From Escherichia phage EJP2: DNA of 64,000 nt. Numbering within the stretch: position 1 is the stretch's first letter; every line of letters starts with the position of its first letter. Positions 2,347 through 44,769 of this stretch are shown in pieces. Both the position numbers and the translations under genes were made by a program. The stretch is from the sequence record OQ411014.1. One strand, given 5' to 3'. The notes beneath the pieces are model-generated. The model was not told the origin of the DNA, made no database searches, and saw only the letters and a program-made list of their open reading frames with translations.

Positions 2347-3693
2347 ATGAGTAATATTACGCTTACGGAAAAGCAACAAAGTACTTTTGATGATTTTATC
2401 GAACGTGTGCATAACTACCCAGGACGCTCTATCTGTGTTCTTGTCGGATATGCTGGTACAGGTAAAACAACATTAGTATCTGAGATAGTACGGAACTTAC
2501 ATTCCGAGTACAACATTGCAGTAACATCACCAACGCATAAGGCGAACTCTGTTATTCGCAATATGCTAATCAATAACGTAGGTCTAAAGAAAGATGATGC
2601 ACAGGTTAGTACTATTCACTCTTTCTTAGGATTGAAGTTAGTATATGAAAAGAACCATCAAGTACTGAAGCATGACCCACAATCTAAGAATAGTAACTCC
2701 TATGTTGATATTCTGATTGTTGATGAATGTTCCATGATTTCCGAAGAGATGTACAATCACATCATGAACCAGATTCACCGTGTTCGACGTGCAATTCTTT
2801 TCATCGGTGACTCATGTCAGCTACCACCAGTTGAAGCTGAAGGTACTATTGGTGAAACCAAACTAAGTCCAACGTTTGATGTACCAGTGAAGTACGAACT
2901 ACAAGAAGTTCTGCGTCAAGCAATGGATAACCCAATCATCAAAGTTGCAACTGCAATTCGTGAATGTATTGGTACTAAGAACAACCCGATGGATATCCTC
3001 AATGCGATTGATGGTTATGATACAATCACACCAATCACTGACGAGGCTTTATTTTTGGACGTGTATAAAGCATATATTTGTGAGAACATTGGTTCAGCGA
3101 AGAAGATTTTTGATTTCGTACAAGAAAACAAAATCATTGCTTATACAAACTACAGAGTGAACTATGCAAACATGTTCATTCGGAGTGAAGTATTCCCTGA
3201 ACACAAAGAAACCGAGTTCGTCAAGGGTGAACCAATTGTCTTTGAATCCGTAACAGAAAACTGTTCATACACTGTACAGCAAATGATTCAATGTCCTGAA
3301 GTTCGTGAAGAACAATTCTTGGGTATTGATTGTTGGCAGTTCAAACTTCCAAACGGAAACTATATCTTAGGTGTAGGGCCATATAGTCGTTTAGCTCTAG
3401 AAGACCATCTTGATAAGTTAGTGAAGAAGATTGAAAAGAAAGAGATGAACCCACTAACACAGAAGCCATATGGTTGGCAAGATTATTACATTATCAAGAA
3501 CAAGATAAACATAATCAACTACCCGTATGCAACAACGGCACATAAGTCTCAAGGTAGCACGTTCAACAATATCTGGTTCGATACTGATTTTATTGATCGT
3601 ATTGCCAATAACGATACTAAATGTCGTATCATGTACACAGCGATGACTCGCCCACGTTATAGTGTTCTACTACGTAAGAACGCGAGTTGGTAA
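2347..3693 (+). CDS. dda: Dda-like SF1B DNA helicase
   Basis: Walker A GYAGTGKTT, Walker B ILIVDECSM, C-terminal TTAHKSQGSTF and AMTRPRYSV motifs; about 448 aa as for T4 Dda. Confidence 0.8.
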   Translation: MSNITLTEKQQSTFDDFIERVHNYPGRSICVLVGYAGTGKTTLVSEIVRNLHSEYNIAVTSPTHKANSVIRNMLINNVGLKKDDAQVSTIHSFLGLKLVYEKNHQVLKHDPQSKNSNSYVDILIVDECSMISEEMYNHIMNQIHRVRRAILFIGDSCQLPPVEAEGTIGETKLSPTFDVPVKYELQEVLRQAMDNPIIKVATAIRECIGTKNNPMDILNAIDGYDTITPITDEALFLDVYKAYICENIGSAKKIFDFVQENKIIAYTNYRVNYANMFIRSEVFPEHKETEFVKGEPIVFESVTENCSYTVQQMIQCPEVREEQFLGIDCWQFKLPNGNYILGVGPYSRLALEDHLDKLVKKIEKKEMNPLTQKPYGWQDYYIIKNKINIINYPYATTAHKSQGSTFNNIWFDTDFIDRIANNDTKCRIMYTAMTRPRYSVLLRKNASW

Positions 3694-7333: not shown

Positions 7334-9304
7334 ATGGCAAAGAAACAATCATCTGTCATGGAAGAACATGGAATCCAACAACTAACCGAATATGAACACG
7401 CCCGAATCAGGACAGAAATGTATCTTGGTTCACGTTCTGTGCATGAACAGATGGCTCTTATCTTTGGTGAAACAGGCTATGCAGTACTGAACACTGCTTG
7501 GGTTCCAGCACTACTAACATCTATTCGTGAAGTTCTTGATAACTCCCTTGACGAATTCGTGAAAGCAATGGTGAAAGACCCTGAACTACGCGTGACGTAT
7601 GATGAAGGAACTCTAAGCATCGTGGTTTCCGACAACGGTCGCGGTATTCCAATTGACTACGTACCAGATACGCAAAAGAACTTGTGTACTATGGTAATGA
7701 CTGAAATGAAAACTGGTCGTAACTTCAATGATGACGAACGTGAAAACGTCATTGGTATGAACGGTCTTGGTGGTTCAGTTGTAATGATTGTTAGTGAAAC
7801 TGCTGAACTGGAAATCCATCGTGCTGGTCGTCCATACAAAACCACAAGCAGTAATGATGGTTATGATGGAATGTACAAATTTACACAGAAATTCAGCGAA
7901 GGAACTCACATGTTCCCTGACCTACAAATCAATGAACCAACGATTCGTAAAGTCAAAGCTGATAAGACTGGTACTACAATTCGTTTCAAACTAAGCCCAG
8001 CAGTATTCCCGAACCTAGTACTACCAACTGAACTAATCTATAGTATCCTAAAAGAGATTAGTGCTGCGAACCCTACCTACAAAATCTTCCTGAACGACAA
8101 ACGTATTCAGTCTAAAGGTGGAGTAGAGAAAGGTCTATTTGGTAAAGCTAAACTAATGACCCTAAGTGTGAAAGACCCAGGCTTTGACAGTACTTTTTAC
8201 ATCGTTCCTGATTCAGTAGAAGGACAAAGTACTAATTTCCACATGCATGGTCTAGTAAACAACGCCCCAGCGTTAGAAGGTGGCACTCACCTAGAAACAT
8301 TCAAGAAGTTCTTTGCATTAGGTATTGGGACTTCTCTTGAGAAAGAAGCTAAGCGTCGTAAAGTAAAACTAAAACCCAACCGTTCTGATATTGAAGAAGG
8401 TCTATTGATTTACAATATCACACGTATGAACTCTCCATCGTTCAACTCACAGACTAAGACTAAACTAACGAATGAAAATGTTATTCGTCCTGTACAGCAA
8501 GCTATGAGTACTGAATGGTTTGATGAGTTAGTGAAGAAAAATAAGGAGTGGGTGGATTCAATCTTTACTCGTTGTGCTGAACGTACGAACAAGAAAGATG
8601 CAGATGAAGATCGTCGTCTAGCAAAGAAACTACTAAAAGGTAAAGTAGCTAAACTCCGTGATGCAACTGGTACTGACCGTTCCAAATGTATCCTACTAAT
8701 CGCAGAAGGTGATTCCGCAATTAGTAACATGTCCGGTGCTCGTGATTCTGCGATTCATGGTATTCTTCCGTTGCGTGGTAAAATCATGAACGTGAACGGT
8801 ACTGAGAAAACTAAAGATCTAATGGATAGTGATTCTCTACGTGACATTATGGCATCAATCAACCTAATCCCAGGACAAAAAGCTGTACGTTCAGAACTGA
8901 ACTATGGTAAGCTATATATCTGTGCGGATGAGGATGAGGATGGTAAGAACATTGGTGCACTAGTGTGTAACTTCCTATTCAAATTCTGGCCTGAACTATT
9001 CCAAGACCCAGAAAATCCGTTTGTTTACATCTTCAAAACTCCATTTATTATTTTGGAGAAAGGTAAAGAAAGTCGTTATTTCTATGGTCATAACGTGCAT
9101 GAATTCAACCCTGACGAATGGAAAGGATGGAAAGCAACTCGTGCAAAAGGACTAGGAACACTAGAGAAATCCAACTTCCGTGATGCACTAACCGATGGCG
9201 TAGCAATCGCAATCACTGATGACGGTAACTTAGGTGCAACATTAGACCTCATCTTCAATAAAGGTCGTTCCGATGACCGTAAAGAATGGATGAAGGACGA
9301 GTAA
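7334..9304 (+). CDS. DNA topoisomerase II large subunit (GyrB-like ATPase plus Toprim; T4 gp39/gp60 equivalent as one ORF)
   Basis: N-terminal GHKL ATPase motifs (DNGRGIP, GMNGLGGS) and C-terminal Toprim (LLIAEGDSA); 656 aa. Confidence 0.9.
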   Translation: MAKKQSSVMEEHGIQQLTEYEHARIRTEMYLGSRSVHEQMALIFGETGYAVLNTAWVPALLTSIREVLDNSLDEFVKAMVKDPELRVTYDEGTLSIVVSDNGRGIPIDYVPDTQKNLCTMVMTEMKTGRNFNDDERENVIGMNGLGGSVVMIVSETAELEIHRAGRPYKTTSSNDGYDGMYKFTQKFSEGTHMFPDLQINEPTIRKVKADKTGTTIRFKLSPAVFPNLVLPTELIYSILKEISAANPTYKIFLNDKRIQSKGGVEKGLFGKAKLMTLSVKDPGFDSTFYIVPDSVEGQSTNFHMHGLVNNAPALEGGTHLETFKKFFALGIGTSLEKEAKRRKVKLKPNRSDIEEGLLIYNITRMNSPSFNSQTKTKLTNENVIRPVQQAMSTEWFDELVKKNKEWVDSIFTRCAERTNKKDADEDRRLAKKLLKGKVAKLRDATGTDRSKCILLIAEGDSAISNMSGARDSAIHGILPLRGKIMNVNGTEKTKDLMDSDSLRDIMASINLIPGQKAVRSELNYGKLYICADEDEDGKNIGALVCNFLFKFWPELFQDPENPFVYIFKTPFIILEKGKESRYFYGHNVHEFNPDEWKGWKATRAKGLGTLEKSNFRDALTDGVAIAITDDGNLGATLDLIFNKGRSDDRKEWMKDE

Positions 9305-9377: not shown

Positions 9378-10781
9378 ATGGCTAAAAAGCAAAACGAGAG
9401 TATTTCTAACGCAACCCTAACACTACTGGACTATGTGAGTTCAGAGTACATCAACCAATCATCACTGGAATATGCAATCAGTACTCTAGACCGTGCAATT
9501 CCAGGTATTGATGGACTAAAAGCATCACAACGTAAAGCAATCTTCACTATCAGTAAAGTTAGTGGTGAAATCAAAACTGTATCAGCAGCAGGACGTATGA
9601 TCAGTGATGGCATTTATCTACACGGTGACGCATCTGCATCTGGTACTTTACAGAACCTAGCATCACCAGTAGTGAATAACTACCCACTAATTGGCAAACG
9701 TGGTGGTTTCGGGAACCAAGCGAACCCTGAGCCAGCAAGTGCACGTTATACATATGTAAAGAAAACCAAAGTCACTGAAGCTCTAGTACTGCGTGATATG
9801 GATGTAGTTCCAATGCAAGAGAACTACGATGGTACAACTATGGAACCACGTCACTTCTTACCTATTATTCCTTTGTGTCTATTCGGTAACGATAGTATGT
9901 CTGTAGGTTACAAAAGTATTATTATGCCGTACAAATTAGAAGATATTATTGACAACTGTATTCGAGTAATTGACAATAAGAAGTTAGTTGATATGATGCC
10001 GTACTATGTAAGTGTAGGTGCATCACCGAACGTAACTAAACTTGAAGAACTAAAGTACGAGTTCTATGGTAAAGCTGAAGTTATCGATGCAAGTACTGTA
10101 CGTATCACTGGTTTACCTCCTTATCGTAAGCTAGAAACTTTCGTTGAGAAACTAATCTCTATGTCCGATGATGGTTCTATTCGTGATTATGACGATAACA
10201 GTACTGACTTAGTGAACATTACAGTGAAGCTCCCACGTGGTACTTCTGCAAAATGGACTGAAAAAGATGTAATTGAATATTTTGGCCTATCCAAGAAAGT
10301 AACTGAAAAACTAAACGTTCTAGGTGAAAATGGATTGGTCAAATCGTACACCAATACTTTGGACATTATTCGTGACTTCGTTGATTTCCGTTTCAAGTAC
10401 TATGTAAAACGTTATGAGAAGAAACTGGAAGCAGCAGCCGCAGAAGTTCGATACAAAGCTCTAGTACAGGAATGTTTCCATAATGATATGATTGGTAAAA
10501 TCAAAGGCTTCCAGAACCGTGCTGAACTAGTTGCATTCGTTGAATCACTAAACACTGAAATTGAAGCATCTGATGAAAACATTCAGAGCATTGTGAACTA
10601 TCCATCTTACCGTTGGACTCAAGAGAACTATCAGAAAGTTCTTGAAGAAATCCAACACGCTTTAGGTCTAATGGATGAGTACAATGATTTACTTTCCAAT
10701 CACGATAAGATTTGGGCGATTTACAAAAATGAACTACTAGAACTACGGGCTATGGACTGCACTCCTAAGTCAGAGGACTAA
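9378..10781 (+). CDS. DNA topoisomerase II medium subunit (GyrA-like; T4 gp52 equivalent)
   Basis: AIPGIDGLKASQRK and FLPIIPLCLFGN motifs parallel T4 gp52 / GyrA N-terminal region; 467 aa. Confidence 0.85.
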   Translation: MAKKQNESISNATLTLLDYVSSEYINQSSLEYAISTLDRAIPGIDGLKASQRKAIFTISKVSGEIKTVSAAGRMISDGIYLHGDASASGTLQNLASPVVNNYPLIGKRGGFGNQANPEPASARYTYVKKTKVTEALVLRDMDVVPMQENYDGTTMEPRHFLPIIPLCLFGNDSMSVGYKSIIMPYKLEDIIDNCIRVIDNKKLVDMMPYYVSVGASPNVTKLEELKYEFYGKAEVIDASTVRITGLPPYRKLETFVEKLISMSDDGSIRDYDDNSTDLVNITVKLPRGTSAKWTEKDVIEYFGLSKKVTEKLNVLGENGLVKSYTNTLDIIRDFVDFRFKYYVKRYEKKLEAAAAEVRYKALVQECFHNDMIGKIKGFQNRAELVAFVESLNTEIEASDENIQSIVNYPSYRWTQENYQKVLEEIQHALGLMDEYNDLLSNHDKIWAIYKNELLELRAMDCTPKSED

Positions 10782-10816: not shown

Positions 10817-10854
10817 ATAAATACTCCGTAGCTTTTAATTAATTGGAGAAACAT

Positions 10855-13236
10855 ATGGCACAATTCATACCACGTTGGGATTTGAAGGCTGACACAAATA
10901 TTATTACTGAAGGTGGTACTACCTATGTGCGTATAAACATCAACAGGGATAAAATTAGTGATCCTTCATTATATGAGATTGAAGATAATCAATATTTAGA
11001 ATTAACATACCGCATTACTGGTACAGGTGAAACATTAGAAGAACGAGATTTTGAGTTATCAGTAGGTGAAGATTTAAATAATTTAAAGCCAATCAGTGAA
11101 ACCAGCACTTATCGTAATATGTTAGGAACACACACTGTTAAATTGGATACCAAATCATTCGAATTGGGAAATAATCTCTCAAAAACAGCTTATTACTTGA
11201 AACTTTATTGCGTAGTTGATGGTGTGTGGGATGGTCCTGAAACATTAGAATTCATTCTAGACACAATGAACATTGTCACTATTACCGAAGGACAAATTTC
11301 AAATGAAGAAGCGTCGGGTAGTATTGGTACAAATACGGCTAAGATTGCATACAATGACAGTACTGAAATATGGGTAACACCATCACTAACAGTACGTGAT
11401 GAAATGTACAGTATTTGTGAAATGCACTATGGTTCGAATAGTCGTGCTTTCGTACAAGCATTTGGTAGATGTAAACCTTACTCTGGTCCTATTGTAGAAG
11501 ATTCATCTAATCGTGTATTCTATCCTATGTATCAAATGGTAAATCTAGCACCGTCAGCAATACCCAGCACTAACAGGACTGGTCATGGTACAGTACTGAA
11601 TCCTGATCCTACTGCAACATTCCCACCTAGTGGTGAAGAAATGCCAGTGGTAATTCGGGATGAGTTAGGGAACAACATTGAAACTGGTTTGAGCTTAAAT
11701 GGTAATGGTCAATTACTCGGAACCTTTCTCTACGATTCTGATCCAATAGATGGTTACTTTAGAGTTAAAATTGTTGCACCAACTGCATATTATACAACTG
11801 AGCGTGATGCATTTTATATCGGTAAGCGTTTTAAAGCGTATCAAATGTGGGTATGTCCACAAGATACATCTTACATCAAAGGTTCACCAACACCAGGCCA
11901 CCTTTACCAATTAAAGAACACTGTAATTTATCCTTATGTTATCAAGGACTTCACGGAGAACTCAATTCACTATCCAATCTTTGAAGAAAATGACTGGATT
12001 GATTTGGGATATTATGATGTGAGTTTGGGTTCTGGTATTATTGGACAAGAAAGAACTTTCCGTATGATTATCAATGGTAACACCGGAGATGGCATTAGTT
12101 TTATCACTGATACTGATTTAGGTTCCATCCATGTGGGTGAGTATTTTGGTCACACGGTATATCCGTCGATTCAAGCCTCTGGTACATTAGTAACTTATAA
12201 GATTCTTGAATCATCAAGAGATGACATTACTAAGTACAACATTGATTTAACCGCAGATGGGATTATGGTCGGTACTGCTTATGCACAAAGTACTGATTTT
12301 AGTGCTAATGACGAAATACACTTAGAGTTTGATGTACAAGCAACAGACAAGAGTGGTGCTAGTGTAACTGCAACATTCAAGATTAGAATTACCCGTGGCT
12401 TCGGTCAGAACTTCCTAAGTGCATTTGTAAAACCACATATGCCATTTGAACGTAAGTGGTTTAAAATGATCAGTACTTCTAATTTTGTGAACCAAGAGTA
12501 CTATAGAACATCTGATGATCGTTATGGGTTACAGAAGTTTCCTAAGATGCTATTGAAAGAGAACTTTGTCAGTACTACTTATATGTACGAATCATTACAA
12601 GCAATGAAGAATACATTACGAGATAACTTAGTGAAGCCTGATACTGGAGCACCAGTACCGACAGGGACGTTTGGTTTTAGTTTAGGTAACTATAAAATTC
12701 GTTCAGCACTTGACAGTTTAGGCAACGTACTGTATGATGTACTATATCGTGAAATCCATCCTAAAGGTACTAGTGTTCCTATCTCTATGGAACCGTTGAA
12801 GTACACTACTCAAGACAATGGATTCTTGGCTGAGTTCTTTGGATTGCGTGAGAACATTGTCAGTACTGTAGGTGAAGACACCACGAACTTGCTATCTGAC
12901 CCGACTGATTTACAGAACCGTGGTTTGTATGTAGATGCAATTACTGGAATCTCGAAGGAAATGTTAGACACAGTTCCACGATACATGAACCATCCATATA
13001 CTGGTGATGGAGTTAAGGCTGGATTTTTGCCTGTAATTCCTGTAGCATACTTTAAGCCAGGTCAAGCTGAAGCATTCTTTAACACACTAATCCGTTCCAA
13101 TGAGTATCAGGAATTGGTGAATGAAGAGTTTGAGATTACATACGTTGAGTTCCAATACTTCTTTTTGCAGTACGCTAAATACGTTCAAGAGAACTATACT
13201 GTACAAATTAAAGAACAAAGTTTATTGGGAGGGTAA
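10855..13236 (+). CDS. large hypothetical protein (793 aa)
   Basis: long uninterrupted ORF; start moved to ATG 10855 with GGAG RBS; no motif recognised. Confidence 0.6.
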   Translation: MAQFIPRWDLKADTNIITEGGTTYVRININRDKISDPSLYEIEDNQYLELTYRITGTGETLEERDFELSVGEDLNNLKPISETSTYRNMLGTHTVKLDTKSFELGNNLSKTAYYLKLYCVVDGVWDGPETLEFILDTMNIVTITEGQISNEEASGSIGTNTAKIAYNDSTEIWVTPSLTVRDEMYSICEMHYGSNSRAFVQAFGRCKPYSGPIVEDSSNRVFYPMYQMVNLAPSAIPSTNRTGHGTVLNPDPTATFPPSGEEMPVVIRDELGNNIETGLSLNGNGQLLGTFLYDSDPIDGYFRVKIVAPTAYYTTERDAFYIGKRFKAYQMWVCPQDTSYIKGSPTPGHLYQLKNTVIYPYVIKDFTENSIHYPIFEENDWIDLGYYDVSLGSGIIGQERTFRMIINGNTGDGISFITDTDLGSIHVGEYFGHTVYPSIQASGTLVTYKILESSRDDITKYNIDLTADGIMVGTAYAQSTDFSANDEIHLEFDVQATDKSGASVTATFKIRITRGFGQNFLSAFVKPHMPFERKWFKMISTSNFVNQEYYRTSDDRYGLQKFPKMLLKENFVSTTYMYESLQAMKNTLRDNLVKPDTGAPVPTGTFGFSLGNYKIRSALDSLGNVLYDVLYREIHPKGTSVPISMEPLKYTTQDNGFLAEFFGLRENIVSTVGEDTTNLLSDPTDLQNRGLYVDAITGISKEMLDTVPRYMNHPYTGDGVKAGFLPVIPVAYFKPGQAEAFFNTLIRSNEYQELVNEEFEITYVEFQYFFLQYAKYVQENYTVQIKEQSLLGG

Positions 13237-15123: not shown

Positions 15124-16080
15124 ATGGCTATTACCCTATGGACTGAAAAATACCGCCCACGTACTCTAGCTGATTATGTTTTCAAAAACCCAGCTTTCCG
15201 TCAGAAGATGGAAGAGTGGATTCGTACTGGTGAGATTCCTCATATTGGTTTCTTCGGTCCAGCAGGTACAGGTAAAACCTCAGCACTACAAGTTCTAATC
15301 AATGGGCTTATTGAGAATGGTTTTATCGATCCTAGCGATGTGACAGTACTGAACATGTCCGATGAAGGTATGGATGCAGTACGTGATAAAATCGACGCAG
15401 CCGCACGTCTAGCTTGCTTTGGTTCTTATCGTATCTTCGTACTAGAAGAAATGGAACAGATGCACCAGAAAGCACAGGGTTCTCTGAAGCGTATCATGGA
15501 GGATTACCATGAGAATGCTCGTTTCATCCTAACTTCTAACGAACCACACAAAATCCTAAAACCAATCCTATCTCGTGTACAATCCATTATGATTGAAAAA
15601 CACGATATGGAACAGTTCATGGAGAAAGTATGCACAGTACTACTCGCTGAAGGTGTAGAACTAGAAACTGAAGAAAGTATCAATCTTGTCCAGAAGTACA
15701 TCAAGAAAACTTTCCCTGATTTCCGTAAAACTCTAAACCTTCTACAGTGTTCCGTTGTAGACAACAAGCTAGTCCAAGTTGAAGAATCAATTGACGGTAC
15801 TGCGTCTTATCGTGATAGTATTGTTGCAGCGTTACAAGCTGGTAACATTCGTCAGATGCGTGAAGAGATTGTTCAGAACATTCCTGAAGATGAAATTGAC
15901 AGTTTCTTCTCCTTCCTGTATCGTAATGTTGATATGTTCACAACTGATGAAGTGAATGTAATGAAAATCAAGGTGAAAATCCGTGATGCAGTTGTGAAAC
16001 AAGCATCTGTATCTGACCGTGAAATGAACCTATCCGCACTCTTGTGTGAAATTGACCTAATTTGTTCTGGGGAAATGTAA
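15124..16080 (+). CDS. sliding-clamp loader subunit (AAA+; T4 gp44-like)
   Basis: EKYRP...FFGPAGTGKTS Walker A, SRV sensor region, KKTFPDFRKT matching T4 gp44 KNFPDFRKT. Confidence 0.85.
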   Translation: MAITLWTEKYRPRTLADYVFKNPAFRQKMEEWIRTGEIPHIGFFGPAGTGKTSALQVLINGLIENGFIDPSDVTVLNMSDEGMDAVRDKIDAAARLACFGSYRIFVLEEMEQMHQKAQGSLKRIMEDYHENARFILTSNEPHKILKPILSRVQSIMIEKHDMEQFMEKVCTVLLAEGVELETEESINLVQKYIKKTFPDFRKTLNLLQCSVVDNKLVQVEESIDGTASYRDSIVAALQAGNIRQMREEIVQNIPEDEIDSFFSFLYRNVDMFTTDEVNVMKIKVKIRDAVVKQASVSDREMNLSALLCEIDLICSGEM

Positions 16081-20804: not shown

Positions 20805-21950
20805 ATGTCCGAGAAAGAAATCAACCCAAAAGCAATCGTAAAAACAAAAGCAAAAGCAAAAGCAAAAAAAGCAGCTACTGTATCTCGTACGATTGATGAA
20901 ACTATTGATTTTGTTGATGTTGAAACCAAGAATCTTCCTGCTGCTCCAGTACTGAAAGATTCTAAAGGTGGTACTCTAGCTCTGACCATCGAGAATATCA
21001 ACACTCTAGGTACTGATGTTGGTACTGGTATTGGTAAACTCTCTGATGATATTCTTCGTCAGGTGAACGTAGCGAACGACAATACCGAATTTGGTAAGTC
21101 CGTAAGTACTATTCTGACTCTAACCCGTAAGGTTGATATTGAGTCCCTGAACGGTGAGCAGACTGGTCTTCTGGCTAAGTTCCGTAACATGTTCAAAGAT
21201 GTGAAACATCGTGTATCTGACCAGTTGACTAACAGCCACGAACAGATCCAAGAAGTTGTCGCTACTCTGGAAACTGGTATCAACCGTATGCGTGGTGAAG
21301 CTGAATGGCTGAAACAAACTTACGATGCGAACATTGTATATCTGAAAGAACTCGAAGAAGTAGTACTGAACATTCAAGAAGTACGTGAAGTTGAAGATGC
21401 GAAACTCAAAGAACTTCTCGCTGATGACAGTACTGAAATGCACATTCTTGATGCACAAAAGATGATTTCTGAAGCTCTGTCCAAGCAAGAAGATAAAGTA
21501 AACCGTCTGATTCACCTGTGTCGTCTGAACGCACCACAAATCATGGCTATGCGTGGTGTGAACATCAACACAATTGATAAGTTCGAATCTCTGAAAACTG
21601 TAGTAATTCCAGCTTGGAAATCTAAGATTGCTCAAGGTCTGATTACTGATCGTCAGCGTCGTGATAACGAACTGGGTGAAATGATGGACAACGAAACTAA
21701 CCGTCTGTTCCTTGAAAGTGCTAAACAAACCAGTACTAACATGGTAACAGCAGCTAAATCCGCACAACGAGGGGTAGTAGATATCAAAACTCTACGTGAA
21801 GTACAGAAGATTACCACACAGGGTATCAAAGAAACTATCGCAGTACAGAAAGCAGGTGAAGCAGAACGTGAAGCAGCAAAACGTGAACTAGCTAACATGC
21901 GTATCGAACTTCGTGATACTCTACGCGATATCAAAAACGAATCTCGCTAA
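20805..21950 (+). CDS. coiled-coil protein, possibly TelA-like
   Basis: 381 aa, KAKAKAK repeat at N-terminus, long helical heptad-like stretches; TelA assignment is a guess from size and composition. Confidence 0.55.
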   Translation: MSEKEINPKAIVKTKAKAKAKKAATVSRTIDETIDFVDVETKNLPAAPVLKDSKGGTLALTIENINTLGTDVGTGIGKLSDDILRQVNVANDNTEFGKSVSTILTLTRKVDIESLNGEQTGLLAKFRNMFKDVKHRVSDQLTNSHEQIQEVVATLETGINRMRGEAEWLKQTYDANIVYLKELEEVVLNIQEVREVEDAKLKELLADDSTEMHILDAQKMISEALSKQEDKVNRLIHLCRLNAPQIMAMRGVNINTIDKFESLKTVVIPAWKSKIAQGLITDRQRRDNELGEMMDNETNRLFLESAKQTSTNMVTAAKSAQRGVVDIKTLREVQKITTQGIKETIAVQKAGEAEREAAKRELANMRIELRDTLRDIKNESR

Positions 21951-32609: not shown

Positions 32610-32643
32610 ATTTTTGAACATTTCAGAAAAAATGTGATATAAT
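32610..32643 (+). promoter_or_regulatory. extended -10 promoter (TGTGATATAAT at 32633-32643)
   Basis: exact recurring 11-mer, upstream of tRNA. Confidence 0.55.
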
Positions 32644-32681: not shown

Positions 32682-32754
32682 GCTTGAATAGCTCAGTAGG
32701 TAGAGCAGCGTACTTGTAATACGAAGGTCGTGGGTTCAATTCCTGCTTCAAGCA
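32682..32754 (+). tRNA. tRNA-Thr (anticodon UGU)
   Basis: manual cloverleaf: acceptor GCTTGAA/TTCAAGC, D-arm TAGCTCAGTAGGTAGAGC, anticodon loop CTTGTAA, T-loop GGTTCAATTCC; no encoded CCA. Confidence 0.8.
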
Positions 32755-32803: not shown

Positions 32804-32833
32804 ACCCAGAATTTGTATTCTGGGTTTTCTTTT
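32804..32833 (+). terminator. intrinsic terminator
   Basis: ACCCAGAAT / ATTCTGGGT perfect stem then TTTTCTTTT. Confidence 0.7.
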
Positions 32834-32855: not shown

Positions 32856-33362
32856 ATGCAAATGACTTACGAAGATACAATGACTCATCTCAGTACTATT
32901 GATATTGAAAAGTTCACTCTAGAAGTCACTACTGGCGACCGCAACAAGAAGATGTGGTACAGTGAATATGAAAATCAAGATGACCTGTATGTTGTGGTTT
33001 CTGATAACAGTTCTTGGGGATTGGTATCAATCACAGTATTCACACCAAATGCTGACAGGACAGTTTTGCATCGCTTCAACCGTTCTATCCATCCTAAGCA
33101 CGAACTGGACGTGATGAAGATTGAATCAATTATGTTCGACTTTGGTGGAAATCGAGATGATAAAGCGGACATTCCAGCAGTGTGCATTCAAAACCTAAGT
33201 ACACTGAAGTCCGAGTCTGATTTCTTCAGTTATATCCTAATGAACAACATCAATGATATCACACATCAGAATATCGTTGACTTCATTGAATTCACTGATA
33301 AACTGTACAGTAAATGGGTAGAACAGTTCGGTGAACCATCTCTAGGAGACGAAGATGAGTGA
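32856..33362 (+). CDS. hypothetical protein
   Basis: start moved to ATG 32856 with AAAAGG RBS. Confidence 0.55.
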   Translation: MQMTYEDTMTHLSTIDIEKFTLEVTTGDRNKKMWYSEYENQDDLYVVVSDNSSWGLVSITVFTPNADRTVLHRFNRSIHPKHELDVMKIESIMFDFGGNRDDKADIPAVCIQNLSTLKSESDFFSYILMNNINDITHQNIVDFIEFTDKLYSKWVEQFGEPSLGDEDE

Positions 33363-33753
33363 AATTCAATCCAGATGTTATATAGTACTGAACAAAGAAC
33401 TCCAGATGCCTGTCGGTAAAGCTGCTGTACAGGTTGGTCATGCGATGGATCAGGTTTGGGGAGCTTTCTGTAATATGACTTCACAACCTACCATGTCTTT
33501 GTTGGGTAACCTGAAGTACATGGAAGACTTTTCCAAATGGAAAGATGAAGGCCGTAAGAAAGTAACACTAGGTGCTAAGAACGACGCTGAAGTTCAGAAA
33601 TATAAAGACAAACTCCTTGATGCGGGTTATACTGTGTTTGATATCGTTGACTACGGAATCAATTTCTTTGATGGTGTAACCAGGACTGGTATTGTAGTCT
33701 TTCCAGTACTGAATGCTATCCCTGAACTAAAACGTTTACAGGTATTCAAATGA
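33355..33753 (+). CDS. peptidyl-tRNA hydrolase, PTH2 family-like
   Basis: VGKAAVQVGHA and C-terminal GVTRTGIVVFPV parallel the PTH2 GKGKVAAQCSHA ... T..GIGP pattern. Confidence 0.65.
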   Translation: MSEIQSRCYIVLNKELQMPVGKAAVQVGHAMDQVWGAFCNMTSQPTMSLLGNLKYMEDFSKWKDEGRKKVTLGAKNDAEVQKYKDKLLDAGYTVFDIVDYGINFFDGVTRTGIVVFPVLNAIPELKRLQVFK

Positions 33754-34172
33754 AAGAATTCAACCGTGCAGAAGCTATAGCAGAGGCTTATGAGAAAATA
33801 AAAAACAATGAACTACGTCTAAAGGATGTATCTCAATCGAATAAGCATCGTGAAACTGACGAATACGTATTGTATTTCAACCCATATGCTGGTATGTTCA
33901 TCTTACGAATGAACTTGGAATGTATCCTAGATACAAACCAGAATCGGACGTTATTATTTTATTCGACCGATGAACCAGATGAAGCATTAGTACCAGTACA
34001 GAACGGTATTGGTAGTATAATTGTACACCCTTATAAATCTGAAGCTGAACAGTTCCAGCGTACTTTGGTCGAAGAAGATTATCCTGACGTTGAAACTATG
34101 AAACAGATTCAATATATTGTTGAGTATATCAAAAGTACACATTTCGGAGGCGTTGATGCAGTACAAGAATAG
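33750..34172 (+). CDS. hypothetical protein
   Basis: 140-aa ORF. Confidence 0.55.
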   Translation: MKEFNRAEAIAEAYEKIKNNELRLKDVSQSNKHRETDEYVLYFNPYAGMFILRMNLECILDTNQNRTLLFYSTDEPDEALVPVQNGIGSIIVHPYKSEAEQFQRTLVEEDYPDVETMKQIQYIVEYIKSTHFGGVDAVQE

Positions 34173-34521
34173 TTATGCAGTCCAACTCGGTACTATGCTG
34201 GCTTTTACTTTCCTGAACGGTTTGTTTGCGTTCTTTTCTCCTAGTACTCCAGAAGTACCAGCACAGGGTCAAGAGAAAGTACTCAAGATTGAAACCATCC
34301 GTCAGGACGTAACTTCATACACTCAAGTACTGAAAAAAGCCGATACGTGTGAAAAGGTAACTGATAAAGAAGAAAATGATTTCTATAGTTGTCCTGACAG
34401 TACTACTATTTCTATGGTACACTGGACTCGTAGCCCAGACCGTAAAGGTGTGGTAACAAAATACTATGACAAGGATAAGAACCTGTTGATGATCTATGGT
34501 CATCCAGATGATGTTTACTAA
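34156..34521 (+). CDS. hypothetical protein with signal-peptide-like N-terminus
   Basis: start moved to ATG 34156 with GGAGG RBS; hydrophobic N-terminus. Confidence 0.5.
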   Translation: MQYKNSYAVQLGTMLAFTFLNGLFAFFSPSTPEVPAQGQEKVLKIETIRQDVTSYTQVLKKADTCEKVTDKEENDFYSCPDSTTISMVHWTRSPDRKGVVTKYYDKDKNLLMIYGHPDDVY

Positions 34522-36760: not shown

Positions 36761-37618
36761 ATGCAACCAATAACAGTACTTAGTCTGTTCAATGGAATGT
36801 CAGGCGGGATGCTTGCTTTAAACGAAGCACAAATACCCGTACATAAGTACTATTCATCTGAGATAGATAAGTTCGCAAACGCTGAGTCCCAAGCGAATTT
36901 CCCTGATATAGTCCAGTTGGGTGATGTTACCAAGTGGAAGGAATGGGATATTGAATGGGACAAAATAGATCTACTCATGGGTGGATTTCCATGCCAGGCA
37001 TGGTCTGTGGCTGGTAAACAGGGTGGAACGAACGATCCACGTGGAATGCTATTCCATACTATGGTTGATATCTATCATCATATTAAGGCGTTGAATCCGA
37101 ACTTGAAAGTACTGTTCGAGAACGTCAAGATGAAAGAAGACTTCAAGCAATACATTGATGGTATCTTAGGAATGACACCTAAGATGATCAACTCTCAAAA
37201 CTACACTGCTCACTATCGCCAGCGATATTACTGGTACTCATCTGATAAGTACTTTATCCCGCCTCCTATCATGTCTTCCCCTTCACTGCAATCAATTCTT
37301 GATAGTGATTACACTGATAGAGAGAAATCGTACTGTATAGATGCGAACTATTGGAAGGGTGGAGATCCTAACCAGTACTTCAACAAGTCCAGGCGGCAGA
37401 TGGTGTTCATGGACCCTGATATTGATAGAGAGTACCTTATTGAAAAGGGTATAAACAAGATTGACTATCGTAAGCTAAGTGTAGTAGAATGTTGTCGTTG
37501 TCAGGGAGTGCCGGATGATTACTTTAAAGTGTCCAGCAATACCCAAGCGTACAAGATGTTAGGTAACGGGTGGACTATCCCAGTCATCGCTCACTTATTA
37601 CGTGATATATTCTTTTGA
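36761..37618 (+). CDS. DNA (cytosine-5)-methyltransferase, orphan
   Basis: motif I LFNGMSGG, motif IV GFPCQAWSVAG, motif VI ENV; no adjacent restriction endonuclease candidate. Confidence 0.85.
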   Translation: MQPITVLSLFNGMSGGMLALNEAQIPVHKYYSSEIDKFANAESQANFPDIVQLGDVTKWKEWDIEWDKIDLLMGGFPCQAWSVAGKQGGTNDPRGMLFHTMVDIYHHIKALNPNLKVLFENVKMKEDFKQYIDGILGMTPKMINSQNYTAHYRQRYYWYSSDKYFIPPPIMSSPSLQSILDSDYTDREKSYCIDANYWKGGDPNQYFNKSRRQMVFMDPDIDREYLIEKGINKIDYRKLSVVECCRCQGVPDDYFKVSSNTQAYKMLGNGWTIPVIAHLLRDIFF

Positions 37619-40485: not shown

Positions 40486-40576
<91 letters not shown>

Positions 40577-40689
40577 GTTTTCAAAAGGTAGCCGAAAGGC
40601 AAGTTTATAGGATTTACGGATAGTTATAAATCTGAATTGACAGCAACTCCTAACAGAGTTACTATCCGCTCCTATCTTTTCTTAATCCA

Positions 40690-40764
40690 CGGGGTATAGC
40701 TTAATGGATAAAGCAGTAACCTTCTAAGTTATTGATCTAAGTTCGATTCTTAGTATCCCGACCA
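40690..40764 (+). tRNA. tRNA-Arg (anticodon UCU)
   Basis: acceptor CGGGGTA/TATCCCG, anticodon stem GTAAC/GTTAT with loop CTTCTAA, T-arm CTAAG-TTCGATT-CTTAG, encoded CCA. Confidence 0.8.
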
Positions 40765-43101: not shown

Positions 43102-43191
43102 AGAAGGTTGGCAGAGCGGCTAAATGCACTCGCCTACTAAGCGAGCACTCGCTCCGGCGAGTCGAGGGTTCGAATCCCCCACCTTCTGCCA
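43102..43191 (+). tRNA. type II tRNA with apparent ACU anticodon (Ser-like, unusual)
   Basis: acceptor AGAAGGT/ACCTTCT, anticodon stem CTCGC/GCGAG with loop CTACTAA, long variable arm, T-loop GGTTCGAATCC, encoded CCA; anticodon read by hand. Confidence 0.6.
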
Positions 43192-43204
43192 TATTAGGAT
43201 TTCA

Positions 43205-43594
43205 ATGATGACAATGCATGTGTACGATGAGTATGAAGAACGTATAAAACATGAAATCCAAAGTTATTTGGATGGTGTCAATAAAAAATTGAAATACAGT
43301 TCGGGTAAACGTTTTCAATCATTCACCCTAGAATACATGGATTGTGATGATTATAAACAACGCAGAATAACTATAAAAATTGCAGTTGATCCGAAGTTTA
43401 GTTGTGTGCATTCATCTTTACAGATAGATTCCACTTTTGGTGAAGATGAAGATCAATACTGGAGTGGTTTTTCCTATATACCAGAAAGTGAAGAAAAGCA
43501 CTTTCAAGAAACGTTACTCAATAAACAGATTTTAAGCTGGGATTTATTGCAGTACTTGATTGTTTTCTTCACTAAAATGCAAAATAAAGATTGA
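43205..43594 (+). CDS. hypothetical protein, paralog family A (SEEKHFQETL)
   Basis: start moved to ATG 43205 to clear the tRNA (track ORF begins 43124). Confidence 0.55.
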   Translation: MMTMHVYDEYEERIKHEIQSYLDGVNKKLKYSSGKRFQSFTLEYMDCDDYKQRRITIKIAVDPKFSCVHSSLQIDSTFGEDEDQYWSGFSYIPESEEKHFQETLLNKQILSWDLLQYLIVFFTKMQNKD

Positions 43595-44445: not shown

Positions 44446-44540
<95 letters not shown>

Positions 44541-44607
44541 TATTGTTCCGAAAAGAATCGAGTTCTAAGATTTGTGATAACTTGTCTTAGTATAAGATTT
44601 TGTGTAA

Positions 44608-44686
<79 letters not shown>

Positions 44687-44695
44687 TCCAAATTC

Positions 44696-44769
44696 GGCCC
44701 TTTAGCTCAGTTGGTTAGAGCAGAGAACTCATAATTCTTTGGTCACTGGTTCGAGTCCAGTAGGGGCCA
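44696..44769 (+). tRNA. tRNA with CAU anticodon (Met or lysidine-type Ile2)
   Basis: acceptor GGCCCTT/AGGGGCC, D-arm TAGCTCAGTTGGTTAGAGC, anticodon loop CTCATAA, T-arm ACTGG-TTCGAGT-CCAGT; no CCA. Confidence 0.8.

Follow-up and report, generated by a model that had tools for sequence, protein, structure and literature searches.

The 64,000-nt stretch of Escherichia phage EJP2 analysed here (sequence record OQ411014.1; hereafter, the window) encodes a true member of the PTH2-domain family of peptidyl-tRNA hydrolases, with a similarity to the family far beyond chance. Its family, fold, active-site conservation, orthology and synteny can be stated plainly; as to enzymatic activity and physiological role, we infer that the protein is probably an active hydrolase used for tRNA recycling. 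The gene is an ATG-started open reading frame (ORF) of 132 codons for amino acids at 33355..33753 on the + strand, stop codon included, and its product is small, single-domain and basic (isoelectric point 8.5). The translation reads GKAAVQVGHA at residues 21-30 and GVTRTGIVVFPV at residues 107-118. The ORF listing and the translation hence bear out an earlier note made from the letters of the window, which had pointed to this ORF and quoted both motifs. A Shine-Dalgarno sequence, AGGAG at 33344..33348 (+), was read from the sequence 6 nt 5' of the ATG, within the 3' end of the upstream ORF. The PTH2 start and the stop of the upstream ORF overlap by 8 nt (33355-33362), and the PTH2 stop and the start of the next ORF overlap in an ATGA at 33750. 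The gene is translationally coupled to its neighbours. A metagenomic Logan contig of 70.9 kb (run SRR22213601) encodes a protein 98% identical to the window PTH2 in the same gene order, and an independent gene call on this contig gave the same PTH2 boundaries and the same upstream overlap.

The family assignment is based on several profiles. The protein matches Pfam PF01981 (PTH2) with 52.5 bits (E=6.7e-14), the gathering score being 23, and its residues 8-118 align on profile positions 3-100 of 115. A precomputed match to PF01981 is also found on all 26 database homologues. The match to phrog_1866, a family labelled 'unknown function' in PHROGs, is full-length (9.3e-22; residues 4-130 on profile positions 6-124 of 126). 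Scans of Pfam and NCBIfam with E allowed up to 10 gave no match of the window protein to the Pth1 family (PF01195). Searching PDB sequences with phmmer matched the window protein to the A. fulgidus Pth2 at 1e-4, and the profile of 22 homologues gave seven matches in the same sequences, every one a Pth2 (best E 5.6e-10).

The AlphaFold2 (AF2) monomer model, built on the 22-homologue alignment, has a predicted local distance difference test score (pLDDT) of 88.3 and a predicted template modeling score (pTM) of 0.82; archaeal and human Pth2 are reported to be homodimers. Four strands (residues 7-13, 69-74, 94-99, and 109-115) form a mixed sheet packed against helices, of which those with at least four residues span residues 20-43, 46-64, and 77-89; this is the Pth2 alpha/beta fold. 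In the helical hairpin (residues 36-56), an insert of about 10-15 residues is variable and the pLDDT is lower. A Foldseek search of the PDB with the model returned Pth2 for all 13 best matches at a probability of 1.00 (3ERJ, 2ZV3, 1XTY, 1RLK, 1Q7S, and 1WN2). The top superposition is on 1XTY, with a template modeling (TM) score of 0.84, as normalised by target length, and a root mean square deviation of 2.4.

The active site was inspected through HMMER alignments of the window protein to PDB Pth2 chains, and was taken via a description of human PTRH2, where K81, Q85, H88, K115, D145, and T157 make up a putative active-site network with a salt bridge between K81 and D145 (PMC10217894). Their counterparts in the window protein, K22, Q26, H29, K69, D99, and T111, respectively, are all present. 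Conservation was counted in a MAFFT alignment of 97 sequences, the window protein and 96 relatives from two protein searches, from which three entries that are repeat proteins or split matches (P0060, P0080, and P0098) were excluded. K22, H29, D99, and G101 are kept in all 97 sequences, down to about 30% identity, and Q26, W62, K69, T109, T111, and P117 in at least 90% of them. Specifically, the codon of Lys22, which belongs to the GK motif, corresponds to K81 of the human and K17 of the M. jannaschii enzyme and is the proposed catalytic lysine, lies at 33418..33420 (+). The Gln26-His29 codons (Q-V-G-H; 33430..33441, +) encode the counterparts of human Q85 and H88 in the hydrogen-bond network, with Q26 kept in 93 sequences. 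The active-site loop D-Y-G-I-N-F-F is encoded by the Asp99-Phe105 codons (33649..33669, +), its D99 being equivalent to human D145, which forms the salt bridge to the lysine. The Thr109-Thr111 codons (T-R-T; 33679..33687, +) include the counterpart of human T157, and T109 and T111 are kept in 89 and 96 sequences, respectively. W62 and K69 align with the W...GQKK segment, D99 and G101 with the D-A-G loop, and T109 and T111 with T-x-T. In the S. solfataricus Pth2, mutagenesis reportedly showed K18 and D86 to be essential (Fromant et al. 2005), which fits this network. The 26 homologues, at 44-98% identity, retain the active-site residues of the window protein, and this was counted as purifying selection.

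The PTH2 reading proposed in the earlier note is fully supported by the sequence, the fold and the active-site residues. Both checks that the note had named, on fold and on catalytic residues, come out in its favour: the AF2 model has the Pth2 fold, and every putative active-site residue is present in the window protein.

The solved archaeal Pth2 proteins compared, namely those of S. solfataricus (1XTY), A. fulgidus (3ERJ/1RZW), P. horikoshii (1WN2), M. jannaschii (2ZV3), and T. acidophilum (1RLK), share the fold of the window protein (target-normalised TM 0.72-0.84) and the motifs GK...Q..H, W...K, D.G, and T.T...P. Different from them, the window protein, which shows 17-27% identity to them in the Foldseek alignments, has about 10-15 more hairpin residues, D-Y-G-I-N for D-A-G-x-T and GRKK for GQKK, and belongs to a virus of bacteria that carry Pth1. 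The catalytic domain of human PTRH2/Bit1 (1Q7S) has the same fold (Foldseek E=3.9e-05, TM 0.76), whereas its identity to the window protein is 17-19% and the window protein is without the N-terminal region for mitochondrial targeting and cell death. Bacterial Pth1 (E. coli Pth, PF01195) catalyses the reaction predicted for the window PTH2 and is the host enzyme that would be supplemented (PMC8012679), but it is unrelated to PTH2 in both sequence and fold (PMC3488237). The closest known proteins are the PTH2s of Rak2-like phages, GAP32_382, RaK2 ORF188, CBB_392, Muenster gp429, and those of Serratia phage BF and Hallingskeid (CDS0288, unannotated). They have in common with the window protein PF01981, phrog_1866, a similar length and a C-terminal LKR-[LV]-[QR]-V-[YF] tail, and differ from it in the length of the insert between helices 1 and 2. 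PTH2s of other large phages and of giant viruses have the same fold and family and mostly come from tRNA-rich genomes, where they are already annotated as peptidyl-tRNA hydrolase, but they fall into clades of their own, in which the loop reads the more canonical D-[AN]-G-x-T-x-F. Those of other large phages were missed by direct tblastn with the window protein and reached via an intermediate, the canonical relative P0039.

At the nucleotide level, megablast with 3.5 kb around the PTH2 gene found no match among 50,697 phage records, and relatives were therefore sought at the protein level. With the window PTH2 as query, tblastn found 35 phage records, each covering at least 95% of the protein. 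They comprise jumbo myoviruses of the Rak2/GAP32/CBB/BF/fHe-Yen9-04 type, 337-378 kb in size, or in one case a fragment of such a phage, together with two Xanthomonas jumbo phages. Identity is highest for the protein of Erwinia phage Hallingskeid (60.8%) and lies at 36-40% for most others; the gene is present across at least six phage genera. HMMER, run exhaustively against 1.84 billion cluster representatives, gave four at E<=1e-10 and 74 at E<=1e-3. Judged by this search, the clade of the window PTH2 is small and isolated. When P0039 was used as query, PTH2 genes were found in at least 59 further phage records, including Mycobacterium phages Myrna, Baka, and Phabba, Sinorhizobium phages phiM7, M12, and N3, Agrobacterium phage Atu_ph07, Xanthomonas phage Xoo-sp13, Salicola phage SCTP-2, the C. 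difficile phiCD211 group, Enterococcus phages, and huge uncultured phages. A fold search of viral models also placed PTH2 in Klosneuvirus, Pithovirus, Yasminevirus, Hyperionvirus, and Fowlpox virus.

Many of the relatives already carry the GenBank label 'peptidyl-tRNA hydrolase'. The record of GAP32_382 cites PF01981 and the P. horikoshii enzyme, and that of Muenster gp429 cites an HHpred match to 1XTY. The RaK2 paper of 2013 noted that the Rak2 gene is of the archaeo-eukaryotic type and not the Pth1 of the host (PMC3622015). The CBB paper of 2017 made the same remark and listed CBB_392 with tRNA-turnover genes common to GAP32 and RaK2 (PMC5259590), a statement repeated in the Eneladusvirus paper (PMC7760394). 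The type was again recognised as archaeo-eukaryotic, and not that of the host's Pth1, in the jumbo-phage survey of Iyer et al. (2021), who proposed that PTH2 hydrolyses peptidyl-tRNA in ribosome rescue once tRNAs have been cleaved (PMC7824862). The gene has been annotated and discussed in Rak2/GAP32/CBB-like jumbo phages since 2012-2013, and what is new here is one divergent PTH2 sequence of a kind already published for the same phage lineage. The view in the earlier note that a PTH2 gene is unusual in a phage does not hold, given the 35 Rak2-like records, the 59 or more further phage records, the giant viruses and the published discussion.

We inspected the surroundings of the gene in the window and in three relatives, Hallingskeid, GAP32, and Muenster. 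PTH2 lies inside a long array of small co-directional genes of no assigned function, with interspersed tRNA genes, that extends from about 29 kb on. The upstream gene (32856..33362, +; 168 residues from its ATG) is co-directional and has no Pfam or PADLOC match and only a weak match to phrog_24941; the downstream gene (33750..34172, +; 140 residues), also co-directional, has no Pfam, PHROG, or PADLOC match. They are followed by a gene labelled as membrane protein in PHROGs (34117-34521) and, about 3 kb 3' of PTH2, by a C5 cytosine DNA methyltransferase gene (36761-37618, +; PF00145, E=2.4e-38). The PHROG and Pfam scans of ten neighbours gave families without assigned function, one membrane protein and one C5 DNA methylase; in the Pfam scan, the eight closest neighbours showed no family above threshold and the methylase was the sole significant match. 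The order of PTH2, a hypothetical gene of about 120-140 residues, a membrane protein gene, further genes and a DNA methyltransferase gene is common to the three relatives. The similar-sized gene 3' of PTH2 was matched in these by size and position alone, and all three have a DNA methyltransferase annotation at the equivalent place. PTH2 has been passed down vertically as part of the core gene set of the Rak2/GAP32-like group and was not recently acquired.

ARAGORN and Rfam both found six tRNA genes in the window, for Thr(UGU), Ser(UGA), Arg(UCU), Ser(ACU), Ser(GCU), and Met(CAU). The nearest is that of tRNA-Thr(UGU) (32682-32754, +; ARAGORN, Rfam 66.5 bits), 600 nt 5' of PTH2, and the region is thus tRNA-rich, as the earlier note had said. 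tRNA genes flank PTH2 in the window, GAP32, and Hallingskeid; in Muenster, no tRNA is annotated within 5 kb of PTH2. About 96% of the tRNA arrays of cluster C mycobacteriophages contain a PTH2-like gene, and that study argued that additional tRNAs go together with additional rescue factors (PMC5966550).

The codon use of the window is strongly AT-biased, and its GC content of 37.4% is far below that of the enterobacterial hosts of related phages. CTA makes up 24% of Leu codons, ATA 14% of Ile codons, and AGA 13% of Arg codons; AGT is the top Ser codon, with 31% versus 5% for AGC; ACT and ACA together make up 79% of Thr codons; and ACA and TCA are also heavily used. CTA, ATA, AGA, ACA, TCA, and AGT are rare codons in enterobacteria. 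The phage tRNAs Thr-UGU, Ser-UGA, Arg-UCU, Ser-ACU, and Ser-GCU match heavily used codons of the window. In the proposed mechanism, hungry codons and the massive translation of an AT-rich phage genome would promote the drop-off of peptidyl-tRNA and so sequester tRNAs. The hydrolase, depending on Lys22 and Asp99, would cut the ester bond of peptidyl-tRNA or of an N-blocked aminoacyl-tRNA and free a reusable tRNA. The phage PTH2 would in this way supplement the host Pth1, making the tRNAs of both host and phage available again. Both minigenes and rare codons close to the start are known to make peptidyl-tRNA accumulate and to cause a shortage of tRNA, and extra Pth undoes this (PMC2490762, PMC8012679).

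Several points weigh against this recycling role. The loop does not read as the canonical D-A-G-x-T, as N103 stands in place of the Thr (human T149). At position 103, 66 of the 97 sequences have T and 31 have N. In these 66 wider relatives, as in every solved Pth2, the Thr precedes E/Q, whereas the 22 close homologues all keep N103, F104, and F105 (G-[IV]-N-F-F). The canonical Thr is a conserved motif residue and not a proven catalytic one. In addition, R67 replaces the Gln of GQKK, giving GRKK, and with both the N103 and GRKK changes in the subclade, substrate preference could differ. The scores to the NCBIfam archaeal Pth2 equivalogs NF003314 and TIGR00283 are 42.0 bits against a cut-off of 126 and 33.7 against a cut-off of 82, respectively. 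The neighbours of PTH2 lack functional families, and the context therefore adds no functional link beyond the proximity of tRNA genes. In the searched literature, we found neither a biochemical nor a genetic test of a phage PTH2. Finally, the host already has an essential Pth1, and that a phage would need another hydrolase is argued rather than observed. As a matter of labelling, the archaeal-Pth2 equivalog name was dropped for the window protein, its NCBIfam scores being far under the cut-offs.

Both functions that the earlier note had proposed, rescue of peptidyl-tRNA and action on tRNA-based defences, are plausible. A counter-defence role, in which PTH2 would deacylate N-acetyl-aminoacyl-tRNAs made by host GNAT toxins of the TacT/AtaT/ItaT type or clear ribosome-bound peptidyl-tRNA fragments after attack by an anticodon nuclease, is the less likely of the two; the chemistry would be the same. 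The acetylation of aminoacyl-tRNA by TacT is reversed by Pth (PMC9241777), Iyer et al. put the jumbo-phage PTH2 with RNA repair and the ribosome rescue of cleaved tRNAs (PMC7824862), and RNA ligase, polynucleotide kinase, and CCA-adding enzyme are also found in Rak2-like phages (PMC3622015). The gene also sits among small accessory genes typical of host-takeover regions. However, no recognisable defence or anti-defence partner adjoins PTH2, and a search of PADLOC-DB at E up to 0.01 gave nothing for the gene or for either immediate neighbour. PTH2 is moreover a stable core gene with a fixed syntenic position across genera, while counter-defence genes are more often variable. GNAT toxins are not known as established anti-phage effectors against Rak2-like phages, which also weighs against this role. 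A narrower form of it, in which the N-F-F subclade with its GRKK segment would be a specialised counter-defence enzyme for damaged or modified tRNA 3' ends, such as GNAT-made N-acetyl-aminoacyl-tRNA, and not a general recycler, appears quite unlikely.

The invariance of N103, F104, and F105 in the close homologues, set against Thr and E/Q elsewhere, together with R67 and the scores under the NCBIfam equivalog cut-offs, could instead reflect a shifted specificity of the D-x-G-x-N-F-F subclade. The substrate would then be another ester, e.g., unblocked aminoacyl-tRNA in host shut-off, a particular tRNA, or a non-tRNA molecule. We regard this as improbable, as all proposed catalytic residues are retained and the AF2 fold superposes on Pth2 with a target-normalised TM of at least 0.8; a general aminoacyl-tRNA deacylase would damage phage translation too, and the genomic context offers no pointer to another substrate. 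The low archaeal-equivalog scores are also the only result in favour of a relic that has lost its activity, or of a protein that keeps the PTH2 fold to bind without catalysis. This is very improbable: the Lys, Asp, His, and Gly positions are invariant even among the most distant of the aligned sequences, the model is confident and compact, and the gene has an intact frame with a ribosome-binding site in a lineage that keeps it in at least six genera. The pseudoenzyme reading was rejected on the invariant active-site residues. An active hydrolase that recycles tRNA is the reading that we prefer.

Aside from their relation to PTH2, the tRNA genes show features of their own. The tRNA-Thr(UGU) gene is preceded by a promoter-like TTGAAC-18-TATAAT with an extended TG (32614-32643) and followed by a terminator-like 9-bp hairpin with a T-run (32804-32825). 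It looks like a self-contained unit, and only tRNA-Thr has a plausible pair of promoter and hairpin. The hairpin would lie inside a TTG-started version of the gene upstream of PTH2, which favours the ATG start of that gene at 32856, as on the SRR22213601 contig. The scan for sigma-70 promoters and terminators gave 38 sites versus 32.9 +/- 5.4 in shuffles, which is no enrichment, and no promoter is claimed for PTH2. Two tRNA pairs lie further downstream on the + strand, Ser(UGA)-Arg(UCU) at 40487-40764 and Ser(GCU)-Met(CAU) at 44451-44769. The Ser(UGA)-Arg(UCU) pair is adjacent in Hallingskeid too (L004 22560-22732), and the tRNA arrangement is therefore partly conserved. The tRNA-Ser(ACU) gene (43102-43191, +; ARAGORN, Rfam 47.9 bits) is 90 nt long and well-formed, with an encoded CCA and the anticodon loop CU-ACU-AA. 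It is also present in Hallingskeid (L001 2211-2301) and is thus conserved, although it lies there on the opposite side of PTH2 compared with the window. A34 is rare in bacterial tRNAs outside tRNA-Arg(ACG), and if deaminated to inosine in this tRNA-Ser(ACU), it may risk the reading of AGA. An ORF at 43124..43594 overlaps the tRNA-Ser(ACU) gene, and its true start is therefore probably further 3'.

The rest of the window contains, upstream of PTH2, a replication block on the + strand with an SF1/PIF1-like helicase (2347-3693) and an AAA+ clamp-loader subunit (15124-16080). The B-like (7334-9304) and A-like (9378-10781) subunits of topoisomerase II are encoded by separate genes, also on the + strand, and are followed by an ORF of 797 residues (10843-13236, +) with no Pfam match. 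A TelA-like 'toxic anion resistance' protein of 381 residues is encoded at 20805-21950 (+; PF05816, E=6.3e-37), and an ADP-ribosylglycohydrolase of 313 residues at 27164-28105 (+; PF03747, E=5.7e-66). The latter could reverse ADP-ribosylation, which would matter for host defence or toxin systems.

That Rak2-like and other jumbo phages carry an enzyme of the archaeo-eukaryotic type is already in the literature and is annotated as a matter of routine, and the window PTH2 adds little as a discovery. For the phage PTH2s, the alternatives are tRNA recycling in AT-rich, tRNA-carrying phages and counter-defence against tRNA-targeting toxins. The divergent copy in the window provides one more sequence for a clade that may be used to test recycling versus counter-defence.

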